64,000 nucleotides of DNA from Parcubacteria group bacterium GW2011_GWC1_36_108 (GCA_000991245.1 LBRD01000001.1:5467-69466), one strand, 5' to 3'; positions 4,626 through 43,827 are shown, counted from the stretch's first letter. Notes: generated by a model from the letters alone, not told the origin. Numbers and translations: made by a program.

Positions 4626-5173
4626 TACTCTTTTGAAATTATTGAATTAATTCTCTCATCCACTGAAAGTATACCATACTCTGGAAGATTTTTCACGGAT
4701 TCAATCCCTAATTTTTTAAGAAAATCAAATGTAATTGCATAAACATAACCTCGAGAGTCATTTGGGTTATCATTTCGCTCAATAAGCCCTCGCAGTAACA
4801 AGTTTCGCAGAGTGTAAGCACAATTAACACCTCGAATAGCTTCGATTTCCGTTTTAGAAATTGGACCACGATAAGCAATGATTGAAACGACCTCCATCGC
4901 AGCATTCGATAATGAATCTTGCAGCTCACTTTTAACCAATCCTTCAATAAATTCAGCATTTTCAGGATTTGAAACCAATTGCACTTCTTCGCCCTTAACA
5001 AGCAAGCTGAGCCCACTGCCCGCCAAGGCATATTTTTCGCTCAACAAAGCCAAAGCAGCATCAACTTCTTCAGCCCTAAGCCCCACAATCTTCATCAACT
5101 TCGCCCTCTTAATCGGCTCCCCACTAACAAACAAAATGCTTTCAATAACCCCTTGTAATTTTTCCAATTCCAT
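4625..5173 (-). CDS. scpB: Segregation and condensation protein B
   Basis: Two winged-helix ScpB repeats (ESILFVSGEPIK... ; VVSIIAYRGPISKTEIEAIRGV). Confidence 0.85.
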   Translation of the reverse strand: MELEKLQGVIESILFVSGEPIKRAKLMKIVGLRAEEVDAALALLSEKYALAGSGLSLLVKGEEVQLVSNPENAEFIEGLVKSELQDSLSNAAMEVVSIIAYRGPISKTEIEAIRGVNCAYTLRNLLLRGLIERNDNPNDSRGYVYAITFDFLKKLGIESVKNLPEYGILSVDERINSIISKE

Positions 5174-5220
5174 AGCTTTTAATTTTTTTATTACTTATTG
5201 AAAGTATACCAGCTTTTTAG

Positions 5221-5246
5221 GAATTATGTAATTAGCTACGTAATTC
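5221..5246. terminator. AT-rich hairpin GAATTAtGTA-N6-TACGTAATTC downstream of the 5272-6381 gene
   Basis: Imperfect inverted repeat. A second copy with the same stem sequence is at 43828-43857. Confidence 0.3.
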
Positions 5247-5271
5247 TCACATTTCATTTCTTAAATTTCTT

Positions 5272-6381
5272 CTAATTTTTATTTGAGCTGTCTGATACAT
5301 TTTGTCGCAACATCGCAAATCTCTCCTCCCTCCTTGGTAATAACTTACTAATTGGAGTTGTTGCAAATATTTCCACATAAAGATTTTCAGCTGTCACATT
5401 CTCATTTGTGATGATTTTTTTGGCAAGTTCATTGCAAAACTTTTGAGTTTCCTCATTTTCCTTGTGCTTGATTGTAAGCTCATCATTGATCAGTATATCA
5501 GAAATTTCTTGCTTGTCTTTAGCATTTTTTATTTTCGGCAAAACTCTGCCTATATAACATCTTATTACCTCTTGTATATCTTCAATAATTTTATCGAAAG
5601 TTTGTTCTATCAAGTCAACATCCCTAAGCGTTAATTTTCCACTTTGGGCCAAAAGTTTCAAATCATTATCATCATATGCTCTAGTAAAAAATAATTTATG
5701 ATAGGCAGCCAATGATGGATTTGAGCAATTGATTTTTCTGCCATGAAAATCGATTACTTCTGGCGTTAACCACTCTTTTGGTATAGTGGTTTCATGATGT
5801 CCAATGGGTTCACCGCTATCGTTCCATTTTATAATATGGGTATCGATACAAAAATTTTCTTTACCATATTTTATTGATCCATCTCCATTTATTGCAAAAA
5901 TCATTGGTTGAAATCCTTCCTCATTATTTTGCAGACGTTTTGCGTCAATGCGTTCAAAAATTCTTTTCTTTCCTGGGCGATGACCACTACTTAAAAATAA
6001 TCCGAAACCTTTACTGCCTAAAAATGATTCAACCTTTTCTAGCTCACGGAAATCAATCGATAAATCAATATCTTTATGCACACCTATATATGCACCTCTA
6101 TAAAGTGAAATATTCAAAGCCCCGTCTAATTGCCAATAAAAATCAGCTCCCTGAAACAAGTCTCCCAACTGCTCAAGAGATTTGTCTAGTTCATTCTTTT
6201 CTTCTTCCGTACAAGGTCTTCGTTCAATATCTTTTTCAGATAAGAAATCAGCGCCTTCTTCCCAAAAAGGTTCCTTTTGAAATTTGTTTCTTTCTCTAAT
6301 TTTTGATTGCTCTGCTAGGTCTGGTTGTGCTTTCACAACTTCCGTGGCTTTTCTCATCATTTGTTTCTCAAAATCATTCAT
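5272..6381 (-). CDS. Nucleotidyltransferase-fold protein (minimal NTase motif)
   Basis: LYRGAYIGVHKDIDLSIDF fits the G[SG]x9-13 DhDh pol-beta NTase motif, with more acidic residues downstream. The rest of the protein is unassigned. Preceded by GC-rich 30-mer copy 1. Confidence 0.45.
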   Translation of the reverse strand: MNDFEKQMMRKATEVVKAQPDLAEQSKIRERNKFQKEPFWEEGADFLSEKDIERRPCTEEEKNELDKSLEQLGDLFQGADFYWQLDGALNISLYRGAYIGVHKDIDLSIDFRELEKVESFLGSKGFGLFLSSGHRPGKKRIFERIDAKRLQNNEEGFQPMIFAINGDGSIKYGKENFCIDTHIIKWNDSGEPIGHHETTIPKEWLTPEVIDFHGRKINCSNPSLAAYHKLFFTRAYDDNDLKLLAQSGKLTLRDVDLIEQTFDKIIEDIQEVIRCYIGRVLPKIKNAKDKQEISDILINDELTIKHKENEETQKFCNELAKKIITNENVTAENLYVEIFATTPISKLLPRREERFAMLRQNVSDSSNKN

Positions 6382-6416
6382 ATTATTTCCAATCTGAAAT
6401 TATTATTTATTTGTTA

Positions 6417-7013
6417 TTAACTCACTCTTCCACGGCCGACGTTGAGTGAGTGTTCTTTTTTTTTGAAAAACATTTTTTCGAGATATTTACCGTTATCCAA
6501 TTTCTGTGCCGTGATGACTCTGACAAATTTTTCCGCCGAATACAGGGCAACCAATTCCAAAATAGGCTTCTCGAAAGGATAAGGCGAAACAAAAACACTG
6601 TGCTGCAATTTCCTGAATTTCAAATCCTTCAAGTGATTCCTAAGCACATCGCGGAAAAGTCTATCTTTTTCAGGAATATCAAACATGACGACTCGCCATT
6701 TGCCATCCCATTTCTTCGGCTTCTTAAATTCTATCGACTTTCCGAAGATATTCAGCACGCGGGCTTGCTTCCTGCCTTTTTCAGTTAAAGTCAATTTAAA
6801 AGAACCGTCGGGAAGCTCGATCTCACTTATAAGTTTTTCCTTCGAAAGACTCTTAATGGAGCGATTAAAATTCTGTGGATTTATTTTTACCCATTCTTTT
6901 TTCAATTTTCGCAAAGTACTAAAATATTGTCGAGGCGATGAAGACATACCCAAAGCGACCCCACCTAAAAGCGCCAACAATATTTTCTTTTGAACAGCTC
7001 CTGGCCTATACAT
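6417..7013 (-). CDS. PaaX-family transcriptional regulator (winged helix + PaaX middle domain)
   Basis: WDGKWRVVMFDIPE...HSVFVSP matches the PaaX signature (E. coli PaaX has AWDGKWLLLLSEGLDK...). N-terminal wHTH-like segment. The ORF's last 8 codons read into repeat copy 1. Confidence 0.65.
   Translation of the reverse strand: MYRPGAVQKKILLALLGGVALGMSSSPRQYFSTLRKLKKEWVKINPQNFNRSIKSLSKEKLISEIELPDGSFKLTLTEKGRKQARVLNIFGKSIEFKKPKKWDGKWRVVMFDIPEKDRLFRDVLRNHLKDLKFRKLQHSVFVSPYPFEKPILELVALYSAEKFVRVITAQKLDNGKYLEKMFFKKKEHSLNVGRGRVS
6423..6452. promoter_or_regulatory. GC-rich 30-mer CACTCTTCCACGGCCGACGTTGAGTGAGTG, copy 1 (candidate operator) upstream of the NTase-like gene
   Basis: Exact 30-nt repeat present three times (6423, 7073, 7615). 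It is GC-rich in an AT-rich genome and lies ~40-70 nt upstream of three consecutive start codons. Confidence 0.55.
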
Positions 7014-7072
7014 ACCCCGATTATACTATAAAAAAATAAAGATTTCTATCTTAATAATATCACACGTTGCAT

Positions 7073-7102
7073 CACTCTTCCACGGCCGACGTTGAGTGAG
7101 TG
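7073..7102. promoter_or_regulatory. GC-rich 30-mer, copy 2, upstream of the PaaX-like gene
   Basis: Identical to 6423-6452. A TATAGTATAAT -10-like box lies between it and the PaaX-like start. Confidence 0.55.
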
Positions 7103-7146
7103 ATGGGGTGTTTGATTATTTTTTATTTTGTCTGCCTACTAAGACT

Positions 7147-7169
7147 GGTTACGTAACATGTTACGTAGC
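7147..7169. repeat. TACGTA palindrome GGTTACGTAACATGTTACGTAGC (family copy)
   Basis: Near-perfect palindrome centred on CATG, immediately 3' of the NUDIX gene. Confidence 0.5.
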
Positions 7170-7172
7170 TAA

Positions 7173-7580
7173 TTATAATTCAACTATTAATTTATTTTTT
7201 ATTTCAATTGGTCTCAAATCCAAATCCGAAAGCTCCTCTAACTTTATCCACATTGGTTCATAAATTCCACTATTGCGGTCTGGACTATATTCTTCCCCGT
7301 CACCACTTCCGAGTTTTCCTCCTAATATATCGCATTGATAAAAATATTCTTTCTGTGGTTCATTATCTTTTTTGATAAAATCAAAATCATACATAAGTTC
7401 CAAGACTGAAACATCTAAGCCCAATTCTTCTTTGCATTCTCTTCTTAGTGCTATGGGATGACTTTCTCCATCATCAACCCCGCCGCCGGGAAAAACAAAA
7501 TATGTTTCCCCATTTTTAATTCTCTTAATTACTAACAGTGAATCATCATTTTTAATTATAGCCCTAACCACAATTCTCAT
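7173..7580 (-). CDS. NUDIX hydrolase
   Basis: Nudix box GGGVDDGESHPIALRRECKEELGL. The ATG at 7580 (MRIVV) is the likely start; the ORF track extends to a TTG at 7595. Confidence 0.8.
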   Translation of the reverse strand: MRIVVRAIIKNDDSLLVIKRIKNGETYFVFPGGGVDDGESHPIALRRECKEELGLDVSVLELMYDFDFIKKDNEPQKEYFYQCDILGGKLGSGDGEEYSPDRNSGIYEPMWIKLEELSDLDLRPIEIKNKLIVEL

Positions 7581-7614
7581 ATTTTTTATTTCCAATCTGA
7601 AATTATTATTTATT

Positions 7615-7644
7615 CACTCTTCCACGGCCGACGTTGAGTGAGTG
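7615..7644. promoter_or_regulatory. GC-rich 30-mer, copy 3, upstream of NUDIX. Shares the extra AT-rich 5' segment ATTTCCAATCTGAAATTATTATTTATT with copy 1.
   Basis: Exact repeat. The AT-rich segment (7587-7613) is identical to 6384-6410 and supplies the same spacing to the AUG for the NUDIX and NTase genes. Confidence 0.55.
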
Positions 7645-7660
7645 GTGGTGAAAGATGGGG

Positions 7661-7828
7661 TTAGGATTTGAAGTCGGAGATTATTATGCGCTTTCGTTCG
7701 ATTTTGAAGGTCATTTTTTGGCGCTCTTTAATTCCGAGTTCGGCGACGATTTCGGATGGAATCACGATTGAAAGACTTCGTTTCCCTACTCTTGTAACTT
7801 TGCGAACAAGTTCTTCTTTCTTTTTCAT
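7661..7828 (-). CDS. AbrB/MazE-family (swapped-hairpin) DNA-binding protein, 55 aa
   Basis: Manual translation gives MKKKEELVRKVTRVGKRSLSIVIPSEIVAELGIKERQKMTFKIERKRIIISDFKS. VTRVGKRSLSIVIPSEIVAELGI is a typical AbrB/MazE/SpoVT looped-hinge motif. It is below the ORF-track size cut-off. Confidence 0.5.
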   Translation of the reverse strand: MKKKEELVRKVTRVGKRSLSIVIPSEIVAELGIKERQKMTFKIERKRIIISDFKS

Positions 7829-7884
7829 AACGCTTTGTCATTCCGAACTTAATCCGGAATCTAGATTAATTTTTATTTTTTATT

Positions 7885-7910
7885 TTGCTACGTAGCATGT
7901 TACGTAGCAA
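7885..7910. repeat. TACGTA palindrome TTGCTACGTAGCATGTTACGTAGCAA
   Basis: 26-nt near-perfect palindrome flanked by a T-run and an A-run, 3' of the 1175-aa gene. Confidence 0.5.
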
Positions 7911-7946
7911 AAAACATATTCAACTGTTTTTTTCTATAAATTATTT

Positions 7947-10900
7947 TTATCCATTAACAATTTCTTCGAGTTTCCAAAAACGACTGCCGCCTTTTTCAAT
8001 CAACTCATTTATCAATTCCGAAACTGCCAACTTCGTTGCATCATTTTTGTATAAAATTTCAAAAGCCCTGACGAAATCATTCACATAGATCATATTTCTA
8101 AATGATTCCGATTTTTTGAGACAGTACTCCAATAAATAAGCTTTCAGTATTCTCAATGTTTCTTGCGGTGCTTGCTCAGCAAGAATTGGCACAGACTTGA
8201 TCAAGCCATAATCCCAATCTGTTTCGCCTTTGCTTTTCTCAAGAGTTTCGGCAATGTGATCCGCAAGCCATTTGGAATCGGCAAAAACATTTTGTTCCTT
8301 GTCCACCCAAAAGCCAAAACCAGCAAAAACTTCTTCATTTTCAACATTCTTAAGTGTCCAATCCCAAAGGTCTTTTATTTTTTGCACATCAACTTTGCTC
8401 TCTTTGATGATAGTGGTTGCATTGGCGTTTGAAACAATATGCCTACCAACAAAAGAAATAGATTCTTTTTGCCTTGTCGTGTTTTGATTTTTCCAAAACA
8501 TTTCAAACAACTTTGAGCCTATTTTGAAATCAGGAAAATGAACATACGCAAGTGCCAAATGAGTTGCCAAACCTTCATCAATATTTTTGAAGTATTTTCT
8601 ATCAGTATAAATTTTCGAATCAAGCTGGATTGCTCTTTCATACAAATCCTCAAATTGAACGAACATGTCTCCATAGATATTGGCAGAAAGATACCCTTCC
8701 CAGGCTGCAAGATACAAATCAAATTTATCACCATCTTTTGAAAATATTTTTGGCATCAAAGAAGCAATCCATTTTTTGTCTCTATAATAAAAAGACGGTA
8801 AATAATGTCCAAACAAAAACATGATCGCAAAAGTCTTCTCCCTTTCCAGTGTCTCTTCAAAAATTTCCTTAACTTCTTTGGAAATTTCTTTTTCTGAAGA
8901 ATTTTCTCCCTCACGATAGACAAAAAGCACCAACGCCTGAAAAGCTCTTCCACGAACTGAATTTATGGCAACAAAGAAAGGTTCGCTTTCCTCCTCAGTA
9001 TTCCTTTCAAGACCGGGATTTTGATGTGCGAGGAGATGTTTGATGACAAACAATAATTGTTCGTGATGTTTTGAAAAATCAATTGTTGTTTGAGTTTTTC
9101 CTTCTCCCAGCAATTCTTTGATGACATCAGACATTGAATAGAAAACTGATTTCCAGCCAACAAGCCAGGCATCAAACTCTTGACGCCTATCATTCTCTTC
9201 AGGAAAATTTTCATCCGCATCTGATTTGACAATGTTTTCAATCAAAATCAGCAACTTTCCAAAATCAACATTTTCTTTTTCAACTTTATTTTCTCGCAAA
9301 ACATCATACACACCTTGCAAAAATGAATGAGTGTAGTGCTGATCCAAAACATCTCGATTGAAAAACAGCTCTGCAGAATCAATATATTCCTCAAATCTTT
9401 GAGTGATGTCTTGTTTGAGCAAGTTTCCCATTCCTTCCGCATTCAAAGGATTCATGAAATCTTTTTCGGTGTCCATAGCTTGAAGATTTTTCGGCGACCA
9501 TATTTCACAAAGATTTGAAACTATTTCCGAAACTTTAAATTTTTGCAAATCTTCCAGGGTTATTGGAGCTTTTGCAGAAATGAATCCTGCCATCCCGTTT
9601 GAAACAATGCTTGGCTCCGGCTGAAACTCTTCTGCGATTTTGCCTTCCAACTTTTCCTCGGCTATGTTTTTTTCATTTGCATCAAGCTCAAAAAAAACGC
9701 AGGAAAGAATTTCACGTCCTTTAACTTTGTGCCAAAATTCATCTTTTTCATCCTCTCTTTTTTTGCCGAAATATTCAATGACATTTTTGATAAATTGTCT
9801 TTTATCCTCATTTAAAAGTACAGAAAAACCTCTTTTCAAAGCCTGCTCATATTCAGCTCCGAAAATCAAATCATAACCATTCTTGTTTTCCTCAAAAAAT
9901 CTAAAAAAGGCTTTTTTCAACTCCGCTTGGAAAATTTGAGGATGAAGACTGAGCACAAACAAACTGAAACGCCACATTGAACGACTGAGTGGCAAAGTTT
10001 CAGCATACTCAGCATACATCCTTTTCATTTTTTCTGGCTCGGCATAATTTTTTGCAAACAATCTTTCAATGAGTTTTTTCATCACAGCAGTCAAGTTCTT
10101 CACATCATCGCGATATGAAGAATGCCTGTCATCTTCAAGTTCAAGTGTGAAAAAATCAACATCAAAAAGTCCAAAGCTATCCTCCACCTCAAAAATCTCG
10201 TTTTTGCTTTTTCTTTTTTTATTTGGGACAATTTTTTTCATCACATCCAAAACAAGTTTCAAAGCCTCTTCCAAATTTTCATCGTCAATTTCAGTCAAAT
10301 GTTTGAAAATTTCAATTTCACCAAGATCCCTAAAATAGAACGGGTTTTCCATGCCAAAAGTTTCTTTTTCACTCGCAACTTCTTTAGGGCGGACAGCCAG
10401 AACAGATTCAGTCAAAATCAAGAAATTTTTCCAATCTTTTGCTTCGGCAAGTTTTTCAAGCATTTGCTGATATTCAAAACCGAAATTGTTGAATTTTTTC
10501 ATCAATTGGATCCATTTTTCATCTCTGATCTTCAAAACCATTCTGACAAGTTGCTCTTTTGGCAAGGAACTGCAGATATATGCAAAGCTATTGATGACTT
10601 CCGGATTGAAATTTTCATCGGAAATTGGAACATCGAGCATGAAGTTGACAACACCAGCGGGGTCTTGTTCTGAGATATTCACAAGATATTGCAACTCTGG
10701 CAGAGTGTAGGAATATTGATTTTTGTCATTTACAGTTTTTTTCACTGCATCCAGAAATCCATTTTTGTGCAAAAATTTTAACCAATTTTTATCAGCTTTA
10801 TTAAAAAAATAGTCTTGAGCATCAACATTTGATTTTAAGATCAATTCCAAATCATTCTTTATTTGTTTTGTTTTTCCAGAAAGTTTTTCCTGAATAATTA

Positions 10901-11474
10901 AATCAATAACATTATGAATGTATATTTGCTGGAAACCGAAAGATTTATTGAGAACATTAATAGCATTTTGCATTAATTCTTCAAACTCACTGTGATCATC
11001 TAAGCTAACAAACTCCTTTTCCGAAAGACATCCTAGATTTACACCATGATGCGCAATATCTGACATTTTCCTATATATTATATCAAGATTTTTAAAAGTA
11101 TCTATAAATTCTCTGTTAAATTTTTTGCCTTCACTCTTTTCATCTGTAGCATAACAATTAAATAATTTTATCAAGTTATAATTTACATTTTTACCAATAA
11201 GAGGAAAAAGAACTTCCCTCATGGAATTTGCAGCCTGACTCATCCAATCAGGATTCGATCTACATTCCAATCTAATTGCATAAAAAGCCCCCTTAATCAA
11301 ATCAGAAGGTTTTCTCCCTATATGTTTTTTAGGATAACTATTATAAAAACTATCTATCTTGTTACATAGTTCACTCACATTTGATCCAGGAATAACTGGG
11401 GACAAAACAAAATCACCATAAGAAACAAGGCTTGATGTTTTTTTATTTTCTATATGTTTTTTGTTATTTCCCAT
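7947..11474 (-). CDS. Large (1175 aa) protein of unknown function, predominantly alpha-helical and acidic/lysine-rich. Candidate defence-island protein.
   Basis: Long uninterrupted ORF with consistent codon usage. No Walker A and no obvious catalytic motif. The N-terminal ~150 aa contain RKMSDIAHH (Rx6H, HEPN-like, speculative). Confidence 0.6.
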   Translation of the reverse strand: MGNNKKHIENKKTSSLVSYGDFVLSPVIPGSNVSELCNKIDSFYNSYPKKHIGRKPSDLIKGAFYAIRLECRSNPDWMSQAANSMREVLFPLIGKNVNYNLIKLFNCYATDEKSEGKKFNREFIDTFKNLDIIYRKMSDIAHHGVNLGCLSEKEFVSLDDHSEFEELMQNAINVLNKSFGFQQIYIHNVIDLIIQEKLSGKTKQIKNDLELILKSNVDAQDYFFNKADKNWLKFLHKNGFLDAVKKTVNDKNQYSYTLPELQYLVNISEQDPAGVVNFMLDVPISDENFNPEVINSFAYICSSLPKEQLVRMVLKIRDEKWIQLMKKFNNFGFEYQQMLEKLAEAKDWKNFLILTESVLAVRPKEVASEKETFGMENPFYFRDLGEIEIFKHLTEIDDENLEEALKLVLDVMKKIVPNKKRKSKNEIFEVEDSFGLFDVDFFTLELEDDRHSSYRDDVKNLTAVMKKLIERLFAKNYAEPEKMKRMYAEYAETLPLSRSMWRFSLFVLSLHPQIFQAELKKAFFRFFEENKNGYDLIFGAEYEQALKRGFSVLLNEDKRQFIKNVIEYFGKKREDEKDEFWHKVKGREILSCVFFELDANEKNIAEEKLEGKIAEEFQPEPSIVSNGMAGFISAKAPITLEDLQKFKVSEIVSNLCEIWSPKNLQAMDTEKDFMNPLNAEGMGNLLKQDITQRFEEYIDSAELFFNRDVLDQHYTHSFLQGVYDVLRENKVEKENVDFGKLLILIENIVKSDADENFPEENDRRQEFDAWLVGWKSVFYSMSDVIKELLGEGKTQTTIDFSKHHEQLLFVIKHLLAHQNPGLERNTEEESEPFFVAINSVRGRAFQALVLFVYREGENSSEKEISKEVKEIFEETLEREKTFAIMFLFGHYLPSFYYRDKKWIASLMPKIFSKDGDKFDLYLAAWEGYLSANIYGDMFVQFEDLYERAIQLDSKIYTDRKYFKNIDEGLATHLALAYVHFPDFKIGSKLFEMFWKNQNTTRQKESISFVGRHIVSNANATTIIKESKVDVQKIKDLWDWTLKNVENEEVFAGFGFWVDKEQNVFADSKWLADHIAETLEKSKGETDWDYGLIKSVPILAEQAPQETLRILKAYLLEYCLKKSESFRNMIYVNDFVRAFEILYKNDATKLAVSELINELIEKGGSRFWKLEEIVNG

Positions 11475-11636
11475 TATAATTTTTCGCTAAATCATATAGA
11501 GCTTACGAAATATTTACACACCTAATAATATTGGTACTGTTGGAATCTTTTCCGTACAAAGTTTTATTGAGAGAACCTTCGACTTTGCACCATCCTAAAT
11601 TTATTTCAAAATCTGAAATAAATTTTTATTTTACAT

Positions 11637-11659
11637 TGTTACGTAGCATGTTACATGGT
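11637..11659. repeat. Degenerate TACGTA palindrome (GTTACGTAGCATGTTACATGG)
   Basis: Partial match to the 26-nt palindrome family, 3' of the 11659-12369 gene. Confidence 0.35.
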
Positions 11660-12369
11660 TACTTTTTTTCTGAATATTTTTTCATAAAATATTTTCCCTT
11701 TTCGGTAAGATTAAATTTTTCACTTCCACTACTATTTGGCACTATTTCAATAAGTTCATGTGTGTCACAATAAACTTTTATACCAAGAGGAATATCACTC
11801 GCCCATCTGTTTCCTTCATAATATGTCTGACGAATTGAATCAAAAGAATTAAAATAATTTGAACCTTTAAAAATTTCGTATTCATCATCCCAAGCTTCTT
11901 CTTGGGACTTTTCTGATTTTATTTTCTTTACAGCTGTTTCTTTTTTAAGGACTTTTTCCTCCGCTTCTAATTTTATTTCTTCTGCTTGAAACTTCTTACC
12001 CTCCAATTTAAGGAAATCCTCTTCTTTTTTTAATTTTACAGTTTTAATATCATATTCATACTCCAAAGATTTTAGATAGTATTTTTTTGTTATTTTTGGT
12101 AGCCAAAATACGACTAGGTATGAAAACAAAAATGGAGTAAATAAACTATAAGCAATTGACCACAAATGACTTACGGGATAAAAAGTCAAAAGATAGTCGA
12201 TTTTCAAAACAGATTTTGACTGCATCAAAAGATCAGAATCGACAAAAAAAGTTACATACCAAACCCTCCAATTCCATACCAGCCAAGATGCAATAAATGC
12301 ACCCCAGAATGGACTAACTAATTTTTCGCCCAGGTTTTTCTCTAATGATTTTTTTGCTTCATCAAACAT
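11659..12369 (-). CDS. Hypothetical membrane-anchored protein with coiled-coil (K/E-rich) linker and a C-terminal globular domain
   Basis: 236 aa with two N-terminal TM segments and a KLEGKKFQAEEIKLEAEEKVLKKE coiled-coil. Unknown family. Sits immediately upstream, on the same strand, of the 1175-aa gene. Confidence 0.45.
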   Translation of the reverse strand: MFDEAKKSLEKNLGEKLVSPFWGAFIASWLVWNWRVWYVTFFVDSDLLMQSKSVLKIDYLLTFYPVSHLWSIAYSLFTPFLFSYLVVFWLPKITKKYYLKSLEYEYDIKTVKLKKEEDFLKLEGKKFQAEEIKLEAEEKVLKKETAVKKIKSEKSQEEAWDDEYEIFKGSNYFNSFDSIRQTYYEGNRWASDIPLGIKVYCDTHELIEIVPNSSGSEKFNLTEKGKYFMKKYSEKK

Positions 12370-12372
12370 ATT

Positions 12373-13125
12373 TTAAATTTTTTGAAAAATAAACAGATGC
12401 TCATGCATAATCAAGAGAAAATTGCTTTCTTGAGATCGTTTTACCCAAAAGCCGGTCGCTTTACAGTTGTGTTGTTTTTTAATAATATCCTCTTTCAACA
12501 TAAAACCTTGCTTCAAAAATCTCTCCATAACTTTAAATGCTAAGGGTTGATACATTTTTTCTCTTCTGGTATCCCCCATCAAAATTGCACAATATTTTCC
12601 TTTTTTCAAAACTCGAAATAATTCACTGGCAACTTTTTCAATTTCATCACAAAATTCATCCAGACTATGAATGCCAGATAAATCTTCTTTAATTTTTCCT
12701 TCGCTATATTTTATAATATCAACATATGGTGGATGAGTAAGAACAAAGTCTATTTCTTCATTCTTGATGAAGGTCATATTGCGAGCGTCACATTTTATTA
12801 TTCGTTGCTTGGATTTATTTTCAACCTCAAATTCCAAGGATTTTCTTGTACGTTCCAGTGCTTCTTCATTAACATCAACACAAGTGATATGACGATTTAA
12901 TATTTTTGCCTCTATTGCAGTCGTTCCACCACCAATCATGCAATCAAGAATGTGATCACTTTCTTTTGAATAACGCAGGATTAAATTACGTACCACTTCT
13001 GGCGCCCAGTTTCCACGCCAATCAGATTTATGTGTCGCCCAATTTCCACGACGTGGAAATGACCATACCGTTGTGCATTCTAAATCAAATTCGTCGGGAT
13101 GCAATTTGATATCTTTTTTGTTCAT
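12373..13125 (-). CDS. Site-specific DNA methyltransferase, N4/N6 class (PF01555-like, DpnA/MboIC-like)
   Basis: WSFPRRGNWATH...NWAPEVVRNLI (FP/HPA-FP region), DCMIGGGTT (AdoMet motif I) and LTHPPYVDI (motif IV, a DPPY variant). Confidence 0.8.
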   Translation of the reverse strand: MNKKDIKLHPDEFDLECTTVWSFPRRGNWATHKSDWRGNWAPEVVRNLILRYSKESDHILDCMIGGGTTAIEAKILNRHITCVDVNEEALERTRKSLEFEVENKSKQRIIKCDARNMTFIKNEEIDFVLTHPPYVDIIKYSEGKIKEDLSGIHSLDEFCDEIEKVASELFRVLKKGKYCAILMGDTRREKMYQPLAFKVMERFLKQGFMLKEDIIKKQHNCKATGFWVKRSQESNFLLIMHEHLFIFQKI

Positions 13126-13934
13126 TATTTTATTTCTAAAATATATTTTTTGCTTTTTACTATTTTCATTTCATTACTAAGACCTTTTTTGTTGTGCTCT
13201 AAGTCGTATGCCCAATATTCAATTCCTCGATTATTTGTTTGCGCAAGCAACACCAGTGAATGCACTTTTTTATGCTGTAAAAGTTTTTCCCATTTTAGCA
13301 GTGGAATCAATGCCTGATTAATATCAAAATTTTCCTGATTAAATGAACTCTTCATCTCTACAATAACTACAGTATCTGGCCATTCAAAACCACCATCTAT
13401 TTCAATTTGAGCTTTGGACATGTCTATATCGGAAGTTCCCACAACAAGATGAACAGCAGCTCGTTGACGACCACCCGTAAATAAAATTCCTGCTTTACCC
13501 AATTCGTAGAAATCTGAAATAATACCTGAGTAATTAGCAATTGCCAACAATGTAGTTTCTCCAGGATTAGTATTCCGACTCATTGTATCCCTAACGCCAA
13601 CTATCATACCGTCTGTTAACTTATTTTTTGGTTGAAAAATAATTTCCTCATCTGGTTTTATAAATTTAACGCTCTCAGTATGCAATATAAGTTTCCACTT
13701 TTGACGACTCAAGGGTATCTTAGCTACGCTCCTTTTCTTAACAGCTTTAATTTTTTCACTTCCGTAATGGAAAATACGTATTTCTCCTTGTCCTGATTTT
13801 TTGTATTTTGATAAAAATGGTTCAAGATCTTCCCTGCTATATTCAACTACATCATTTCCATCTGGACGATTATCCCAGAATTTTTTAAGAAACTTCTCCC
13901 AAGCTGCTTCTTTCCATGAATCTTTATTGGCCAT
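13125..13934 (-). CDS. Candidate PD-(D/E)xK nuclease (possible restriction endonuclease)
   Basis: SDIDMS...WPDTVVIVEMK resembles the D...(D/E)xK catalytic core. Its start overlaps the MTase stop (ATGA). No closer family assignment is possible by eye. Confidence 0.4.
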   Translation of the reverse strand: MANKDSWKEAAWEKFLKKFWDNRPDGNDVVEYSREDLEPFLSKYKKSGQGEIRIFHYGSEKIKAVKKRSVAKIPLSRQKWKLILHTESVKFIKPDEEIIFQPKNKLTDGMIVGVRDTMSRNTNPGETTLLAIANYSGIISDFYELGKAGILFTGGRQRAAVHLVVGTSDIDMSKAQIEIDGGFEWPDTVVIVEMKSSFNQENFDINQALIPLLKWEKLLQHKKVHSLVLLAQTNNRGIEYWAYDLEHNKKGLSNEMKIVKSKKYILEIK

Positions 13935-13968
13935 AATATAATTTATTTATTATTTCTTGTTTTGGTAA

Positions 13969-14835
13969 TTACCACGCTAATTCTTCAAGAGATCCCTGCT
14001 CTACCATTTGCAAATTGAAAACATATTCATTGTTGTTATATGTTTCTTCGAGTGGTCTTTTTGTTGTGTGCCAACCAAGTCCATCAGTAACCCAAACAAA
14101 ATCAATGCCCTGTTCTTTCAGTTCTCTATAAAGATCTTTAAACTCTCCACAAACTGCTTTCAATTTTGAACCGCCGCCATTGTAAAAATTAACTTCAAAC
14201 AATTTAATTTTTTTATTTTCAGGATTAAATACGGCGAAGTCAAAACTTCTTTCTGATTTATTTACCTTAACTTCGACACCCCACTTATTGCGAATTTCCG
14301 TAGAGCTTGCCTGCGCTATGTATTCAAAACCTTTTTGTTCACATAATTTGCCAATATGAGATTCAACTATTTTCTCCATTAGTGACCCTCCGCGATTTTT
14401 TCTGCCGTTGCTATCCAGTCCAACTTCAACACCAATAACATAATCAACAAGATTTTTAATTCCCTCTTTTTTAAAAAGGTTTATCAAGCCAGTTCTCTCA
14501 AGAAACATATAATACTTTTCAAAATTATCAACGCCAGCTTCATTATTCTTAAAATCAAAGATTTCAAAACTCCCATCACTTAATTCAAATATCTCTAACT
14601 GCTTTTCCCTTACTGCCAATAAGACTGGAAAAGCCTTAACTACGTCAGAATTAGTTTCGTATAATGTTTTAAATTCCGCCTTCAAATCCTCTTTTCCCAA
14701 AAGATAATTTAATTTATTCAGAATAATTTCCATCTCCGAACTATTTGTAAAAACCTTTTCCCAATTTACAAAATATTCCCATGTTTTAATTGAGTTTTTT
14801 AATGTATCTACTAAATTTTGAAAGTCTTTCTGCAT
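13969..14835 (-). CDS. Type II restriction endonuclease, DpnII/MboI family (GATC-specific family)
   Basis: 288 aa. NLVDYVIGVEVGLDSNGRKNRGGSLMEKIV, EVNFYNGGGSKLK and WVTDGLGW closely match my recollection of R.DpnII (NLVDYVTGVEVGMDTNGRKNRTGDAMENIV, EVNFYSGSGSKL, WITDGQGW). Adjacent to a Dam-class MTase. Confidence 0.65.
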   Translation of the reverse strand: MQKDFQNLVDTLKNSIKTWEYFVNWEKVFTNSSEMEIILNKLNYLLGKEDLKAEFKTLYETNSDVVKAFPVLLAVREKQLEIFELSDGSFEIFDFKNNEAGVDNFEKYYMFLERTGLINLFKKEGIKNLVDYVIGVEVGLDSNGRKNRGGSLMEKIVESHIGKLCEQKGFEYIAQASSTEIRNKWGVEVKVNKSERSFDFAVFNPENKKIKLFEVNFYNGGGSKLKAVCGEFKDLYRELKEQGIDFVWVTDGLGWHTTKRPLEETYNNNEYVFNLQMVEQGSLEELAW

Positions 14836-14849
14836 AAATATAGACTTTT

Positions 14850-15821
14850 TTAATAATTGATTACGACAACCTCCTTAATTTTTCCTCTTCCTGTGCCTTT
14901 TGAATTTATTGAACGTCCAGCGTCAACAGTGTGAATTTTTATTTTTTTGCCTAGTCCAGAATATAATTCATTAATAAGTGGCGTATCAGAATTTGAAAGC
15001 ATAACATAGCAACCTCTCTTGTGGAGTTCCATAAAGGCATCCTTCAATTCTATTTGTTGTTTTTCAAGAAATCCCTCCTTGGTATAACTCGTAAAACTAG
15101 AAGTTGCATTAACAGGATAATAAGGCGGATCAAAATAAACAAAATCTCCTTTTTTTGCTTTTTCTAAAACTTTTCCATAATCCTGATGCAAAATTTTGGT
15201 ATGTTTCATTGCATCATGGGCTTTCCGCAAATTTTCTTCATCACAAATAAGTGGATTTTTATTATCCCCAAATGGAACATTGAATTGACCACTACTATTA
15301 ACACGAAACATCCCATTGAAACAAGTTCTATTCAGATATATAAAACGAGCAGCAACATCAACATCAGAAAGTTTTTTAAAATCTTGCGCACGAACTTTGA
15401 GAAAATATTCTTTATTATTTTTCTTTTGATGTTCTTTTAATTTTTTTATTAATCCTTCAACATCATTTTTAATAACATTATAAGTTGTTACTAATTCGGC
15501 ATTCATATCAGACAAAACAGCTTTTTTTGGCAACAAATCAAAAAACATTGCCCCACCACCGACAAAAGGCTCAAAGTAAGTTGCAGTTTTCGGATCAAAG
15601 TCATAGGGCGGATATAAATCTCTCTCCCTAAATTGTTTGAGTAATTGCCTTTTTCCTCCAACCCACTTTACAAACGGTTTTGGATTTTCATCTTTAAATT
15701 CTTTGTACGCCGATATGATATTTTCAGCTGATGCATTTTTAAGGTTCGACATAAAAACCCGCAGATGAATTGGATGGATATTTAAACTGACGGCTATATC
15801 TTGTATTATTTTTTGTGTCAT
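14850..15821 (-). CDS. DNA adenine methyltransferase, Dam/D12 class (DpnM/MboIA-like)
   Basis: FVKWVGGKRQLL, FEPFVGGGAMFF (motif I) and YFDPPYYP (DPPY). About 40 aa of N-terminal extension. Confidence 0.85.
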   Translation of the reverse strand: MTQKIIQDIAVSLNIHPIHLRVFMSNLKNASAENIISAYKEFKDENPKPFVKWVGGKRQLLKQFRERDLYPPYDFDPKTATYFEPFVGGGAMFFDLLPKKAVLSDMNAELVTTYNVIKNDVEGLIKKLKEHQKKNNKEYFLKVRAQDFKKLSDVDVAARFIYLNRTCFNGMFRVNSSGQFNVPFGDNKNPLICDEENLRKAHDAMKHTKILHQDYGKVLEKAKKGDFVYFDPPYYPVNATSSFTSYTKEGFLEKQQIELKDAFMELHKRGCYVMLSNSDTPLINELYSGLGKKIKIHTVDAGRSINSKGTGRGKIKEVVVINY

Positions 15822-15909
15822 ATTTTTATTTTAAACTCTTACAGTGATATTATATCATTCAATAGGTTCGAACACAACTGTGGATAACTTATTTTTCAAA
15901 AATAAAACC

Positions 15910-15935
15910 TTGTTACGTAACATGCTACGTAACAA
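15910..15935. repeat. TACGTA palindrome TTGTTACGTAACATGCTACGTAACAA
   Basis: 26-nt near-perfect palindrome between the Zn-ribbon gene and the Dam MTase. Confidence 0.5.
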
Positions 15936-16029
15936 CATCAATTGACTTATGCCCCATTATCTCATAATCCCCCCACTTAATCAATTAAATAAAACAAAGA
16001 AAAGACCGGCTGAATTGCCAGTCTTTTGC

Positions 16030-16218
16030 CTATTTTCTACCTCCTCTTTTTTCAACCTCCCCATCTTTCAATTCTTTGCCAGACCAGCGTCCAAAACGTG
16101 CGCCACAATCTTGGCAGACAATTTCACTCACGCCGTCATAATACTCAGGATGCATCATGTCATATTCCACCATGATAATATTTTCACTTCCGCACTTTTT
16201 ACATTTTTCGTTTTCCAT
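16030..16218 (-). CDS. Small zinc-ribbon protein (62 aa)
   Basis: CKKCGS...CQDCGARF: two CxxC pairs. Lysine/Glu-rich tail. Confidence 0.5.
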   Translation of the reverse strand: MENEKCKKCGSENIIMVEYDMMHPEYYDGVSEIVCQDCGARFGRWSGKELKDGEVEKRGGRK

Positions 16219-16231
16219 ATTATTTTCAATT

Positions 16232-17296
16232 TTATTTTTTCACCATCCTATATCTTGTTGCCCTTCCCATCCCAATGCGCCTGATCAGTCCATGTTCAAG
16301 CAATCTTGCCACGGATTTTTTTATGGTTGGCAATGGAATGTCGGCCAAGTTTTTTTTGATTTCAGCCACGCCCAATTCAACCTCAACATTGCCAAACAAA
16401 TCAAAAATTTTCTTTTGCACCTCAGAAAGCAAACTTTCTGGATCATTTCCTTTGAGCAAGTCTATCGCTTTTTTTGATTGAATCAAGATGCAGTCCAAGA
16501 AAAAATTAATCCACGGATCAATATTCTCATCAGTAGTCTTGTGATTTTTTTGTGTTTCCCTTAGAGCCAAATAGTATTCCGACTGTTTATCTTCAATGAT
16601 TTCTTCCAGGGAAACATATGGGACATGCAAATATCCAGCCTGGAGCATCATAAGATTTGTCAATGCGCGAGAAAGTCGCCCATTCCCATCTTCAAATGGA
16701 TGGATTGCGAGAAATTCAAAAATGAAATTTGCAATCATCACCAGAGGATGCATTTCTTTTTTTCCCTGATTTTCCTTGAGCCACTCCAAAGCATCATCCA
16801 TCTCTTTTTTCACAAGCCATGGAGGCGTTGGATTGAAAAGAATTTTCTTAACTTCTCCATTTTGAACAATTGCAACTGTGTTTTCTTTCTTTTTGTATTT
16901 TCCTCTATGCAATTTGTCTTTTTCAGAAAACTCAAGCATGATTTCATGGAGTTGCAAAATTCTGTTTTCAGTTATTTTCAGCGAATCATGATGATCAAAA
17001 ATTCTTCCAAGCAAATCAGCATAACCAGCAACTTCCTGCTCATCTCTGTTTTTTGGAACCAGCTGTTTTATGCCACGCAAAAATCTGTCCACTTGCTGGT
17101 CAGTCATTTTTGAACCCTCAATACGCGTGGATGATCCCGTGCTAGTGATAATCACTGAACGCTTAAGTTGACCCAATATTCTTGGATTCAATGCTAGTGA
17201 TCCCTTCCATTGCCCTTTCATTTCATCAATCTTGGTAATTTTGAGCAAAATCTCATTGGAAAGCCTTATTCTTTTGTCTAGTCTGTCTTTTTTCAT
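16232..17296 (-). CDS. Fic family protein (class II, intramolecular inhibitory motif) with C-terminal winged helix
   Basis: Fic motif HPFEDGNGRLSRA. STRIEGS inhibitory (S/T)xxxE(G/N) motif upstream. C-terminal HTH-like tail. Confidence 0.85.
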   Translation of the reverse strand: MKKDRLDKRIRLSNEILLKITKIDEMKGQWKGSLALNPRILGQLKRSVIITSTGSSTRIEGSKMTDQQVDRFLRGIKQLVPKNRDEQEVAGYADLLGRIFDHHDSLKITENRILQLHEIMLEFSEKDKLHRGKYKKKENTVAIVQNGEVKKILFNPTPPWLVKKEMDDALEWLKENQGKKEMHPLVMIANFIFEFLAIHPFEDGNGRLSRALTNLMMLQAGYLHVPYVSLEEIIEDKQSEYYLALRETQKNHKTTDENIDPWINFFLDCILIQSKKAIDLLKGNDPESLLSEVQKKIFDLFGNVEVELGVAEIKKNLADIPLPTIKKSVARLLEHGLIRRIGMGRATRYRMVKK

Positions 17297-17524
17297 ATAT
17301 ATTCAGATATATCCAATTGTATACGATAATATCCATAAAGTCAAGCTTTTGCTGTGCACATTTTTTTGATTTTTTGTGCATAATTGTCAAGATGTACACA
17401 ATATGTGTGCTAAGTTCTACTTTATGCTCAAATAAGCCATTTTTGTGACAATCACATGATCAATTACTTCAATTCCCAGAATCTTCCCTGCTTCAATAAG
17501 CTGCTTAATAATTGCAAGAATAAA

Positions 17525-18244
17525 TTACGTAATACTTTTCACATCCTTATGTCTCATTTTTATTTCGGAAAACAACTCCCCCTGCTCAACATGAATAATT
17601 CGTTGTTTTACTAATTCAAGCATTGCAAGAAATGAAACTACTACTTCAACCTTATCTTTTGCATTTGCAACGAGCTCGGCAAAGGATGTTTGCACACGCT
17701 CTCGCAGGGTATCTTGCAAATGAATAATTCTATCTTCCAGAGTTAAAACTTCTTTTACCATTTCTTCTTCCAGTTTTTCTACTATAGGAATTTCTCCAAG
17801 CACCTTGTTAAAAGCTTTTTGCAAATCGCTAGCTACAATGTTTTCCGGTGGATAAAAAACCATTCCTATCCCCAAGAATCCTTCACGCGAAAAACTTGAC
17901 TTGGGAGAATCAAAAACGAGAGCAAGTTTTGCTGAAGCGTCTTTAAATTTTTTATACTCTGCCAATTGATATTCCAAATCTTTAATCTCTTCCTCCTCTT
18001 CTTCAGTAAATTCCAACATCGGAAGCAAGGCTTTGGATTTGATCAAAATAAGTCTTGCAGCCACTGACAAAAAATCAGCCAGATGAGCAAGCGTGATGTC
18101 TTTGGCCTCAGCAATATAGGCCAGATATTGATCTGCAATTTTCGCCAAACTTACTCGAGTAATATCAAGTTTTTCCTGTTCCGTCAGTTGCAAAAGCAAA
18201 TCCAGCGGCCCTTCAAATTGTTCGAGTTTAAAATGATAAGACAT
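17525..18244 (-). CDS. scpA: Segregation and condensation protein A (kleisin)
   Basis: FEGPLDLLLQLTEQEKLDITRVSLAKIADQYLAYI N-terminal ScpA signature. Start taken at MSYHFKLEQF. Confidence 0.8.
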   Translation of the reverse strand: MSYHFKLEQFEGPLDLLLQLTEQEKLDITRVSLAKIADQYLAYIAEAKDITLAHLADFLSVAARLILIKSKALLPMLEFTEEEEEEIKDLEYQLAEYKKFKDASAKLALVFDSPKSSFSREGFLGIGMVFYPPENIVASDLQKAFNKVLGEIPIVEKLEEEMVKEVLTLEDRIIHLQDTLRERVQTSFAELVANAKDKVEVVVSFLAMLELVKQRIIHVEQGELFSEIKMRHKDVKSIT

Positions 18245-18283
18245 AATAATTTCAATAATCAATAACAACAATACAAAAACAAA

Positions 18284-42167: not shown

Positions 42168-42818
42168 CTATTTTTTTATTTTTTTAATAAGATTGTTTAA
42201 TTCGGTTGAAGCTTTGATGAGATAATTTGTCAAAATTTTCTGCATCGCATTTTTTATATAAAGTCTTTGATGTTTATCACTTTTTATTCCAAGTGTATCT
42301 TTATAAATAATATCGTGTTCAATTTCAGCCCAAGCATGATGCAAGATCGATGTTAATTGTATTTCACACTTAAGATCCTTAAATTTACTATACTCGCTTA
42401 AACTAATTCTTTTTTCGCCAAAACTTGCAACCACATGTGTTGATTCATAACCTGATATTTTCTTGTGATGAGTAACACTAACCTCATTAGTCAATTCTGT
42501 TAATAATTTTTTTTCAAACTTATTTTTATCAGCTTCAATATAAAACAGAATACGCAGTCCAGCTAAATCTTCCAAATCTTCCAACTTTTCATATCGAATA
42601 CCCTCCGCCTCTTTTCTCAATATTTTTTCCTCGAGCTTATCAAGTTCTTTAATTCTGTAAAATATTTGATACTTACATCCTTCGGTTATAAGCATACTAT
42701 CAAGTAATTTATACATTGCTAGACAGAACTCTTCATAAAGAGCCCTTTTTTCTCTAAAATCATTCAGTATCGTTTCTAGATTACTTTCCATAGTCTGAGG
42801 AGTATAACACGGAATCAT
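42168..42818 (-). CDS. RelA/SpoT-domain small alarmone synthetase-like protein
   Basis: YRIKELDKLEEKI...DLAGLRILFY...EIQLTSILHHAWAEIEHDIIYK matches the (p)ppGpp synthetase NTase domain (EIQIRT..QH.WAE.EH..YK). Confidence 0.75.
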   Translation of the reverse strand: MIPCYTPQTMESNLETILNDFREKRALYEEFCLAMYKLLDSMLITEGCKYQIFYRIKELDKLEEKILRKEAEGIRYEKLEDLEDLAGLRILFYIEADKNKFEKKLLTELTNEVSVTHHKKISGYESTHVVASFGEKRISLSEYSKFKDLKCEIQLTSILHHAWAEIEHDIIYKDTLGIKSDKHQRLYIKNAMQKILTNYLIKASTELNNLIKKIKK

Positions 42819-43806: not shown

Positions 43807-43827
43807 GGACAACACCGATAAAAAAAG

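Follow-up and report, generated by a model that had tools for sequence, protein, structure and literature searches.

The stretch of DNA analysed here, referred to as the window, comprises 64 kb from the genome of a groundwater Candidatus Moranbacteria bacterium of the Candidate Phyla Radiation (CPR). A preliminary description of this sequence had proposed that the genes scpA and scpB are separated by a block of about 12 kb of accessory genes, marking an integration hotspot or defence island. The identities and coordinates of the two anchor genes are secure: the upstream anchor, the kleisin gene scpA (17525-18244 or 17525-18271, minus strand), matches Pfam SMC_ScpA (PF02616, E 4e-27), and the downstream anchor, scpB (4625-5173, minus strand), matches SMC_ScpB (PF04079, E 9e-43). 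They lie 12.35 kb apart, and relative to related genomes the inserted segment, which we refer to as the island, extends from 5174 to 17524 (12,351 bp). All substantial open reading frames (ORFs) from 4.6 to 18.3 kb are on the minus strand, and every gene previously listed for the block was recovered there at its expected position. The 1175-residue protein encoded in the island is identical to a protein from a Candidatus Moranbacteria metagenome-assembled genome.

The island proteins were compared with Pfam, PADLOC and NCBIfam. Reading from scpA towards scpB, with all genes on the minus strand, the first encodes a 354-residue SoFic-like Fic protein (16232-17296; Pfam Fic E 7e-18, PADLOC SoFic E 4e-46), followed 14 nt downstream by the gene for a 62-residue Zn-ribbon protein with two CxxC pairs (16030-16218; a weak match to NCBIfam ECs_2282_CxxC). 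Next are a D12/Dam-type methylase of the DpnM type (14850-15821; Pfam MethyltransfD12 E 8e-65), a DpnII-family restriction endonuclease (13969-14835; Pfam DpnII E 2e-93, PADLOC REase_II E 6.5e-95), a 269-residue DUF6997 protein (13125-13934; Pfam E 7e-18, PADLOC REase_II E 1.8e-10), a 250-residue PF01555 (N6/N4) methylase (12373-13125; Pfam E 2.7e-22, PADLOC MTase_II E 8e-93), and a 236-residue predicted membrane protein that matches nothing in Pfam, PADLOC or NCBIfam (11659-12369). The 1175-residue protein (7947-11474) has no match in these three collections, nor any PDB sequence match. It is followed by a 55-residue AbrB/MazE-like protein of the SpoVT-AbrB fold (7661-7828; Pfam MazE_antitoxin PF04014, E 3.5e-6), a 140-residue NUDIX hydrolase (7173-7595; Pfam E 7e-16, PADLOC PDC-S07 E 9e-16), a 198-residue PaaX_M/Cas2-like protein consisting of a winged helix and a Cas2-like domain (6417-7013; Pfam PaaX_M E 1e-22), and a 369-residue protein of the nucleotidyltransferase (NTase) fold (5272-6381). 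The last has a weak match to Pfam Aminoglyc_resit (E 2e-4), a minimal nucleotidyltransferase motif, G-x(n)-DIDL, and no match in PADLOC or NCBIfam. The start of the NUDIX gene is probably the ATG at 7580, in a register common to the repeat at the 5' end of the NTase gene. A plus-strand 111-residue ORF at 15949-16284 is probably spurious, because it has no Pfam match, deviates in codon usage (z = -3.3) and overlaps the Zn-ribbon gene.

The scpA-scpB junction in related genomes

We compared the window with 44 related loci, obtained from a scan with one genome per species, whose ScpA proteins are 30-90% identical to that of the window (57-90% in most, and 30-50% in the six most distant). Searches by tblastn with the window proteins reveal a conserved order of eight genes, response regulator-AsnRS-MFS-ScpA-ScpB-Dac-MraY-PGK, Dac being a D-Ala-D-Ala carboxypeptidase. 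Both genes are present in 37 loci, and in all but one of these (36) the spacer between scpA and scpB measures 0-287 bp, typically 0-40 bp; counted over the 39 related Moranbacteria genomes that are informative for the junction, the number is likewise 36. It follows that the island genes do not belong to a conserved core order, and the proposal that they interrupt an otherwise adjacent gene pair stands.

The junction is also filled in three relatives, each with an insert of its own. L014 has a segment of 2.2 kb encoding a 62-residue ORF and a Schlafen-AlbA_2/HATPase_c_4 protein. L006 (ScpA 83% identical) has genes for SRPBCC, glyoxalase and RadC proteins, another Fic protein, a Zn-ribbon protein, an SDH-type protease, a DUF6680 protein, two proteins of no known type and a 692-residue methylase, after which the contig ends. 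The L006 Fic protein is 25% identical to that of the window and its Zn-ribbon protein 90%; a further relative of the Zn-ribbon protein, in L016, is 72% identical. The third, L005 (ScpA 90% identical), is a sister species; its island, of 9.9 kb, and that of the window are mosaics of each other. The flanking core genes are thus adjacent in most relatives, and different cargo occupies their junction in the window, L005, L006 and L014, as expected of a hotspot. The first word of the term 'integration hotspot' fares less well; since no integration machinery was found, 'recombination hotspot' is the better description of the scpA|scpB junction.

Directly downstream of scpA in the window there is a remnant of the 3' end of a radC gene, consisting of about 30 codons and a stop (17417-17509, minus strand). 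It was recognized by a 77-nt blastn match at 85.7% identity to L006 5677-5753, which is the end of an intact RadC gene (Pfam RadC E 4e-43), and its translation, IKQLIEAGKILGIEVIDHVIVTKMAYLSIK followed by the stop, agrees with the RadC C-terminus. The remnant is a trace of earlier cargo and records a past deletion.

Because the window comes from a metagenome-assembled genome, and because the contigs of four relatives (L009, L024, L025 and L042) end at or near scpA, we considered whether the island might be an artefact of mis-assembly or of wrong scpA/scpB assignment. Identical ScpA and ScpB proteins are, however, encoded by 14 to more than 23 contigs of Rifle groundwater metagenomes, which represent different samples and assemblers, and the same island is contiguous across both junctions in several independent metagenome assemblies, which excludes mis-assembly or a chimera for the island. 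With strong Pfam assignments for both anchor genes, and with L005 spanning the hotspot independently of the window from scpA to the region upstream of scpB, the likelihood of an artefact is vanishingly small. The four contigs themselves stop where scpA ends or no more than about 110 bp from that point, which is consistent with strain-variable or repeat-containing sequence at the same junction in those populations.

A mosaic relationship with the island of L005

When the window is compared with L005 by blastn, conserved and replaced blocks alternate. There are six of the former, of which five belong to the island, and five of the latter. The conserved blocks are the flanking core segment of the MFS gene and scpA (89% identity), a palindrome (see below) with the Dam-type methylase gene (94%, and 97% at the protein level), the PF01555 methylase gene (89%, and 95% at the protein level), a palindrome with the AbrB-like gene (88%), the NUDIX and PaaX-like genes (92%, with the PaaX-like proteins 96.5% identical), and the joint upstream of scpB (98%, or more exactly 97.7%). 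Among the replaced blocks, the Fic and Zn-ribbon genes of the window give way in L005 to glyoxalase and GNAT genes, DpnII and DUF6997 to GmrSD (PADLOC HEC-06, E 4e-75) and a 211-residue protein, the membrane protein and the 1175-residue protein to a 154-residue protein, and the NTase-fold gene to a HAD hydrolase; the fifth is an extra gene for a 475-residue protein after AbrB in L005. The L005 cargo consequently reads glyoxalase, GNAT, Dam, GmrSD, 211-residue protein, methylase, 154-residue protein, AbrB, 475-residue protein, NUDIX, PaaX, HAD. The ends of the mosaic blocks lie at or near the palindromes and GC-rich repeats described below.

The restriction-modification block and the Fic protein

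The five genes from the Dam-type methylase to the 236-residue protein are tightly packed, with gaps of 15, 35, -1 and 3 nt, the end of the DUF6997 gene overlapping the start of the PF01555 methylase gene by 1 nt. Rather than as two restriction-modification systems, the block is best read as a single GATC-type system of the DpnII/MboI kind with two methylases and an extra nuclease candidate. Four observations lead us to this reading. The closest solved relative of the Dam-type methylase is DpnM (2DPM, E 2e-77, versus E 5e-39 for Escherichia coli Dam), and the enzyme is probably GATC-specific. The trio of Dam-type methylase, DpnII and this PF01555 methylase recurs in L104 (64-72% identity) and L057. 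DUF6997 homologues, which are common in Patescibacteria, neighbour a D12 methylase, a PF01555 methylase or both in three sampled contexts (L141-L143), the order in L141 being Dam, a 137-residue protein, DndB, DUF6997 and PF01555 methylase. There is also a precedent in the two-methylase DpnII system dpnMAB (PMC3812788); alternative DpnI and DpnII systems are carried by different strains of Streptococcus pneumoniae (PMC3812788). By this reading the PF01555 enzyme would be the second methylase, in the position of a DpnA/MboC-type enzyme, and the DUF6997 protein is a restriction-endonuclease candidate. The presence of two independent type II systems in the block is possible.

The segment between the two methylase genes appears to be a variable nuclease slot. 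It is occupied by DpnII and DUF6997 in the window, by GmrSD and the 211-residue protein in L005, by DndB and DUF6997 in L141, and by DpnII alone in L104. In L005 (12402-16477) both methylases are kept (97% and 95%) around the GmrSD type IV enzyme and the 211-residue protein, the latter with a PD-(D/E)xK-like motif. Because these two stand in the place of DpnII and DUF6997, the Dam-type methylase of L005 is without a DpnII partner.

The 236-residue protein is encoded by the last gene of this restriction-modification operon, and judged by eye alone it is a putative membrane protein, with two hydrophobic N-terminal segments followed by a charged, coiled-coil-like middle. We considered it as a conserved partner of the 1175-residue protein encoded next to it and rejected this, as it has no similarity to the small upstream ORFs of other loci encoding relatives of that protein.

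In the Fic protein the canonical motif HPFEDGNGR is readable, HPFEDGNGRLSR being present as the motif of pattern HxFx(D/E)GNGRxxR, and the C-terminus forms a winged-helix-like tail. The PADLOC SoFic match covers residues 34-349; the score against the NCBIfam SoFic equivalog is 62.9 bits versus a cutoff of 550. A terminator-like hairpin with an 11-bp stem and a T-rich tail follows the Zn-ribbon gene (16000-16027, minus strand).

The family of the 1175-residue protein

A word-indexed search returned more than 120 homologues of the 1175-residue protein, none of them with a Pfam domain. An exhaustive HMMER search enlarged the family to about 1,650 representative clusters formed at 50% identity (1,659 at E <= 1e-3, and 247 at E <= 1e-30). 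The guanine-plus-cytosine (GC) content of the family's loci ranges from 0.27 to 0.60, and the family is therefore not restricted to CPR bacteria.

An AlphaFold2 model of the protein is entirely alpha-helical, with a predicted local distance difference test score (pLDDT) of 85.8, and Foldseek searches against PDB return only generic HEAT/ARM solenoids, with template-modelling (TM) scores of 0.10-0.20. The model thus suggests an all-alpha solenoid without a recognisable catalytic domain. The family occurs in a long form of about 1,150-1,200 residues and a short form of about 1,000 residues lacking residues 1-182, and of the 48 loci with the short form, 19 encode the N-terminal domain in an ORF of its own directly upstream. 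This domain, of about 190 residues, is modelled as a helical bundle (pLDDT 80.6) with invariant residues S57, G62, N74, D76, S84, R86, H142, H143 and H187, and it has no significant structural match in PDB or BFVD, nor a significant relative by sequence. A HEPN-domain effector, which would have a conserved Rx4-6H motif in a four-helix fold, was considered for the N-terminal domain and rejected: in RKMSDIAH the R varies, whereas H142 and H143 are invariant, and the best HEPN structure match has an E-value of 0.5 and a probability of 0.30.

The genomic context was compared in 86 loci of the family. The large cluster among the upstream neighbours is that of Eco57I/MmeI-type (type IIG) methylases, present in 40 loci, and smaller clusters are formed by PLD-SNF2 helicases, type I HsdR proteins and ResIII helicases. 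Upstream sequence of more than 4 kb is available for 56 loci, and 35 of these have at least one such restriction-modification or helicase neighbour. The family is thus repeatedly appended to the 3' side of restriction-modification and helicase loci, and it is a candidate defence component.

Defence content of the island

That the block contains defence genes is borne out by the PADLOC scan, which recovers the type II restriction-modification genes, the SoFic-like protein and a PDC-S07 candidate. This applies to only part of the cargo, for the NUDIX, PaaX-like, NTase-fold, membrane and 1175-residue proteins are without an established defence role. A survey of 3,004 CPR genomes reported 25 defence islands, defined as having at least five defence genes from at least three families; by that account CPR genomes have few islands but are dense in defence genes, and restriction-modification and SoFic are first-line families (PMC12259885). 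Genomic islands, and a restriction-modification island, have also been described in Patescibacteria (PMC12455944). The island in the window holds at least five defence genes, namely the Dam-type methylase, DpnII, the DUF6997 protein (by its REase_II match), the PF01555 methylase and the SoFic-like gene, together with the NUDIX gene as a PDC-S07 candidate. They represent the restriction-modification and SoFic families, and the number of families reaches three solely by counting the candidate PDC-S07.

A different view of this content is that the island is of a general accessory or regulatory nature, with Dam-type methylation as epigenetic housekeeping, and with the NUDIX, PaaX-like, NTase-fold, Fic and AbrB-like proteins serving metabolism, regulation or symbiosis. 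Five of the 12 genes match no defence model, the inserts of L005 and L006 include glyoxalase, GNAT, HAD, SRPBCC and RadC genes, and the Fic protein falls below the NCBIfam SoFic equivalog cutoff. Such a role is nonetheless difficult to reconcile with a complete DpnII nuclease accompanied by two methylases, with the additional nuclease candidate and the PADLOC SoFic and PDC-S07 matches, with the presence of GmrSD/HEC-06 and a Schlafen-AlbA_2 protein in the same slot in relatives, and with the position of the 1175-residue family behind restriction-modification or helicase genes in most informative loci. We regard it as very unlikely.

Palindromes, repeats and joints

The repeat families noted previously, TACGTA palindromes and GC-rich repeats, are real, and within the window they are confined to the island. 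An 18-bp perfect palindrome of the form TACGTA-N6-TACGTA (TACGTARCATGYTACGTA) occurs at 7150, 7889 and 15914, and in degenerate form at 11640, compared with 0.01 occurrences expected by chance; all four copies are in intergenic regions. The copy at 15914-15931 (TACGTAACATGCTACGTA) is 93 bp upstream of the Dam-type methylase gene, has the same position in L005, and as RNA would form a hairpin with a z-score of -3.3. The degenerate copy at 11640-11657 (TACGTAGCATGTTACATG) is 166 bp upstream of the gene for the 1175-residue protein. The AbrB-like gene is preceded, at a distance of 61 bp, by the copy at 7889-7906, which is part of an extended inverted repeat of about 26 bp; as RNA this copy, too, would form a strong hairpin (-15.1 kcal/mol, with a z-score of -4.4). 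The copy at 7150-7167 (TACGTAACATGTTACGTA) lies between the NUDIX and PaaX-like genes. The TACGTA hexamer alone occurs 14 times in the window, 11 of these in the island.

Both edges of the island carry the hexamer. At the left-hand end of the gene order a single copy (17526-17531) is included in the last codons and stop of scpA (ATT ACG TAA), and TACGTAA also overlaps the scpA stop codon in L005 and L006. The right-hand joint (5203-5246, minus strand) contains a degenerate palindrome, TACGTAGCTAATTACATA, at 5225-5242, 52 bp upstream of scpB, which overlaps a sigma-70-like promoter, ATTACA-18-TATACT (5232-5203); scpB would be transcribed from this promoter of its own. Full palindromes number six in L005; five belong to its island, where most mark cassette joints. 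In L012, which has no island, the 81-bp spacer between scpA and scpB holds an intact palindrome, TTACGTAATTAATTACGTAA, and the sequence following it is homologous to the right-hand joint of the window.

The palindrome is also found with relatives of two island genes elsewhere. Homologues of the 55-residue AbrB-like protein, 47-93% identical, are present in five sequences (L003, L005, L008, L016 and L137), and in four of the five a TACGTA-N6-TACGTA site lies no more than about 100 bp upstream. For the close homologues of the 1175-residue gene in L139, L140 and L051, the palindrome is upstream of the operon. A type II toxin-antitoxin pair would have a small AbrB-fold antitoxin directly before a toxin gene. 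The gene downstream of the AbrB-like gene differs between genomes, being NUDIX in the window and the 475-residue protein of unassigned function in L005 and missing from L003 and L008, and none belongs to a known toxin family. The AbrB-like gene is not called in public assemblies, yet it is conserved in five other genomes. AbrB mini-cassettes with flanking TACGTA-N6-TACGTA are situated between mraY and pgk in L003 (8679-8898) and L008 (13721-14019), two genes that are 80 bp apart in the window, and the mraY-pgk spacer is a second, smaller variable site in the same neighbourhood.

The GC-rich repeat is a 26-mer, CACTCTTCCACGGCCGACGTTGAGTG, with three exact copies (6423-6448, 7073-7098 and 7615-7640) and no other in the window, against zero expected by chance. 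Copies are located just 3' of the NUDIX, PaaX-like and AbrB-like genes, they fold only weakly (hairpin z-scores of -0.9 to -2.3), and two are present in L005. The PaaX-like ORF reads into the repeat copy at 6417-6452, its last 11 codons encoding HSLNVGRGRVS before the stop, and the L005 orthologue is three residues shorter. A further repeat of 38 nt (6374-6411, with a second copy at 7577-7614; 89% identity) comprises the 5' untranslated region and start codon common to the NTase-fold and NUDIX genes. This repeat and the 26-mer make up a joint of about 75 nt that is present twice, at 6374-6452 and 7577-7644. A phage origin was rejected for the palindrome and the GC-rich repeat, since a search of 2.9 million viral contigs gave no exact match to either.

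As to the function of the palindromes, we rejected a role as terminators, since the stem is preceded by a T-run and followed by an A-run, whereas a terminator would show the opposite order; only the copy at 15910-15935 is scored as terminator-like. A textbook bidirectional terminator, AAAAAAAGAATTACGTATTTAGTTACGTAATTCTTTTTT, is found between convergent genes elsewhere in the window (43822-43856). Its stem contains TACGTA twice, 12 nt apart, with a flank arrangement opposite to that of the palindromes, and the hexamer pair thus occurs in an unrelated structural context as well. Judged from sequence, the most likely role of the palindromes is that of operators bound by the AbrB-like regulator which the island itself encodes. 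Several features nonetheless tell against such a role. Their positions relative to predicted promoters are inconsistent, one being about 50 bp upstream of the Dam promoter, another before a hairpin upstream of the PaaX-like gene and a third over the scpB -35 element; one copy scores as a terminator; and in L137 the 1175-residue gene and AbrB are linked (78% and 85% identity) without a full palindrome. Roles as recombination sites or at the RNA level are possible.

The first of these bears on how the island was assembled. One explanation is a cassette array built by site-specific recombination at TACGTA-N6-TACGTA, in the manner of an integron, a CALIN or an att site, with the recombinase encoded elsewhere. 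It would account for the palindromes at cassette joints in both the window and L005, for TACGTA at both island ends (the copy at the scpA stop and the degenerate right-hand palindrome), for the single intact palindrome followed by window-like joint sequence in the 'empty' L012 spacer, for the travel of the AbrB-like and 1175-residue genes with the palindrome to L003, L008, L139, L140 and L051, and for the co-orientation of all cassettes. Co-orientation is uninformative, however, in a window where 51 of 58 genes are on one strand. There is, moreover, no integrase, transposase or resolvase in the island, and none was seen in a crude scan of the window; the sites are 18-30 bp and perfect, rather than 55-140 bp and imperfect as attC-type sites are; the cassettes have promoter-like sequences of their own; and several exchanged blocks are bounded by the two conserved methylase genes, not by palindromes. 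On balance we think this explanation unlikely. Its integron/CALIN form was rejected on site length, structure and the absence of an integrase (no IntI-like protein).

Probable exchange of cargo by homologous recombination

We consider it likely that the stretch between scpA and scpB is a variable accessory island, composed mostly of defence genes, at a recombination hotspot where cargo is exchanged by homologous recombination. The island would be built from at least five independently exchangeable cassettes: the SoFic-like Fic protein with the Zn-ribbon protein; the DpnII/MboI-type GATC operon of DpnM-like methylase, DpnII, DUF6997, PF01555 methylase and membrane protein; the 1175-residue alpha-solenoid protein; the AbrB/MazE-like DNA-binding protein with the NUDIX hydrolase; and the PaaX-like regulator followed by the NTase-fold protein. 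Cargo would be gained, lost and swapped between related Moranbacteria without a dedicated integrase, the recombination being anchored by scpA, scpB and conserved internal segments, namely both methylase genes and the intergenic joints with palindromes. The DNA would most likely enter the cell by natural transformation.

We infer homologous recombination because searches for alternatives were negative and because the composition of the island is like that of the core. No recombinase family was found by Pfam, PADLOC or NCBIfam among the scanned island ORFs of at least 60 residues, and a crude motif search with one resolvase query gave no tyrosine- or serine-recombinase signature in the window. 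There is no tRNA near the island and no Rfam family at its edges, nor are there long flanking direct repeats, the edges sharing only single TACGTA hexamers. The compositional difference that might have been expected of inserted DNA did not materialise: GC content is 0.338 in the island versus 0.355 in the rest of the window, and codon usage is the same as in core genes (Mann-Whitney p = 0.35), which suggests donors within the same lineage.

Some points weigh against this interpretation. Homologous recombination with transformation is deduced from the absence of other machinery, and outside the island the recombinase check was crude, consisting of the motif search and single resolvase query just mentioned. 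Site-specific recombination would be equally compatible with the palindromes at every joint, the TACGTA at both edges and the single intact palindrome of L012. For about half of the cargo no defence function is demonstrated, and the GATC specificity of the methylases and nucleases is drawn from family membership alone.

A more far-reaching proposal joins two features of the island. The family of the 1175-residue protein, with its separable N-terminal domain of about 190 residues and invariant S, N, D, R and HH residues, would be a new anti-phage component acting with restriction-modification or helicase modules, and the TACGTA palindromes would mediate a CPR-specific cassette exchange or mark a shared AbrB regulon. 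If this were true, defence islands at scpA|scpB and elsewhere would be put together by such an exchange system or regulon, with no integrase linked to them. We find the combined proposal rather doubtful, and continue to prefer a variable island whose cargo is exchanged by homologous recombination.

Other features of the window

GC skew is negative almost throughout the window and the minus strand encodes 51 of the 58 ORFs of at least 100 residues, so that the whole window probably lies within one replichore with its genes strongly co-oriented with replication. The gene preceding that for the MFS protein encodes a class II aminoacyl-tRNA synthetase, which is only 31-38% identical to that of the window in many relatives and 84-97% identical in close ones. 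This contrast, noted at L005 5517-8737 and in the tblastn comparison of AsnRS, suggests that a paralogue has taken over a fixed position (AsnRS versus AspRS). At a distance from the island, a low-GC gene (0.295; 42168-42818, minus strand) encodes a 216-residue RelA_SpoT-domain protein (Pfam E 2e-13), and divergent to it is a 55-residue ORF (42914-43081, plus strand) with weak CcdA/RHH-like matches; the two (42168-43081) may be a small-alarmone-synthetase toxin-antitoxin pair.

Comparison with known systems

CPR bacteria, or Patescibacteria, have very small genomes and are thought to carry few defence systems, and few defence islands have been reported in them. This locus is a clean example, in which about 12 kb of defence and accessory cargo interrupts scpA-scpB and is replaced cassette by cassette in a sister species. 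Hotspots between core genes and defence islands are both already known; this hotspot splits the scpA-scpB pair, and our literature search found no paper describing the scpA-scpB junction as a hotspot. Three features deserve follow-up, the cassette mosaicism with its palindromic joints, the nuclease slot between methylases and the solenoid family, and they provide testable leads: an integrase-free turnover of islands, possibly tied to natural transformation and a DpnA-like methylase; a short palindrome as a possible operator of an island-wide AbrB-type regulator; and a large unannotated protein family behind restriction-modification and helicase genes.

Like the core-gene hotspots of E. coli and Pseudomonas, the island has a fixed position between two core genes, and the site is empty in most relatives and filled with different cargo in others. 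It differs from them in splitting the scpA-scpB pair, in having no integrase or mobile-element hallmarks and in lacking a compositional signature. Neither does it resemble an integrative mobile element, having no integrase, no tRNA or att target and no long flanking direct repeats. With integrons and CALINs it shares co-oriented cassettes, short palindromic separators and the absence of a nearby integrase; it departs from them in that the palindromes are 18-30 bp, perfect and not attC-like, in that promoter-like sequences accompany the cassettes, and in that some units are bounded by genes. The restriction-modification and SoFic-like cargo is like that of the CPR defence islands (PMC12259885).

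Among the individual components, the 1175-residue family can be set beside the PADLOC 'HEC' candidates found at restriction-modification, BREX or Hma loci, in that, in 35 of 56 informative contexts, it is the 3'-terminal addition to a locus for a type IIG/Eco57I methylase, a PLD-SNF2 protein, a type I HsdR protein or a ResIII helicase. The L005 GmrSD protein matches one of these candidates, HEC-06, whereas the 1175-residue protein, a generic alpha-solenoid, has no PADLOC, Pfam or NCBIfam match.

The restriction-modification operon compares most directly with DpnII and MboI. The MboI gene order is M-R-M, and the pneumococcal DpnI and DpnII cassettes share one chromosomal locus. The window operon is alike in combining a DpnM-type D12 methylase, a DpnII-family nuclease 15 nt from it and a second, PF01555 methylase in one operon, the last being likened by class and operon position to DpnA, a methylase of single-stranded DNA. 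It differs in its extra DUF6997 nuclease candidate and membrane protein, and L005 differs further in that the methylases are kept but the nucleases replaced. The alternative DpnI and DpnII cassettes of pneumococci are echoed here by the different enzyme, GmrSD, that occupies the nuclease slot of the sister species.

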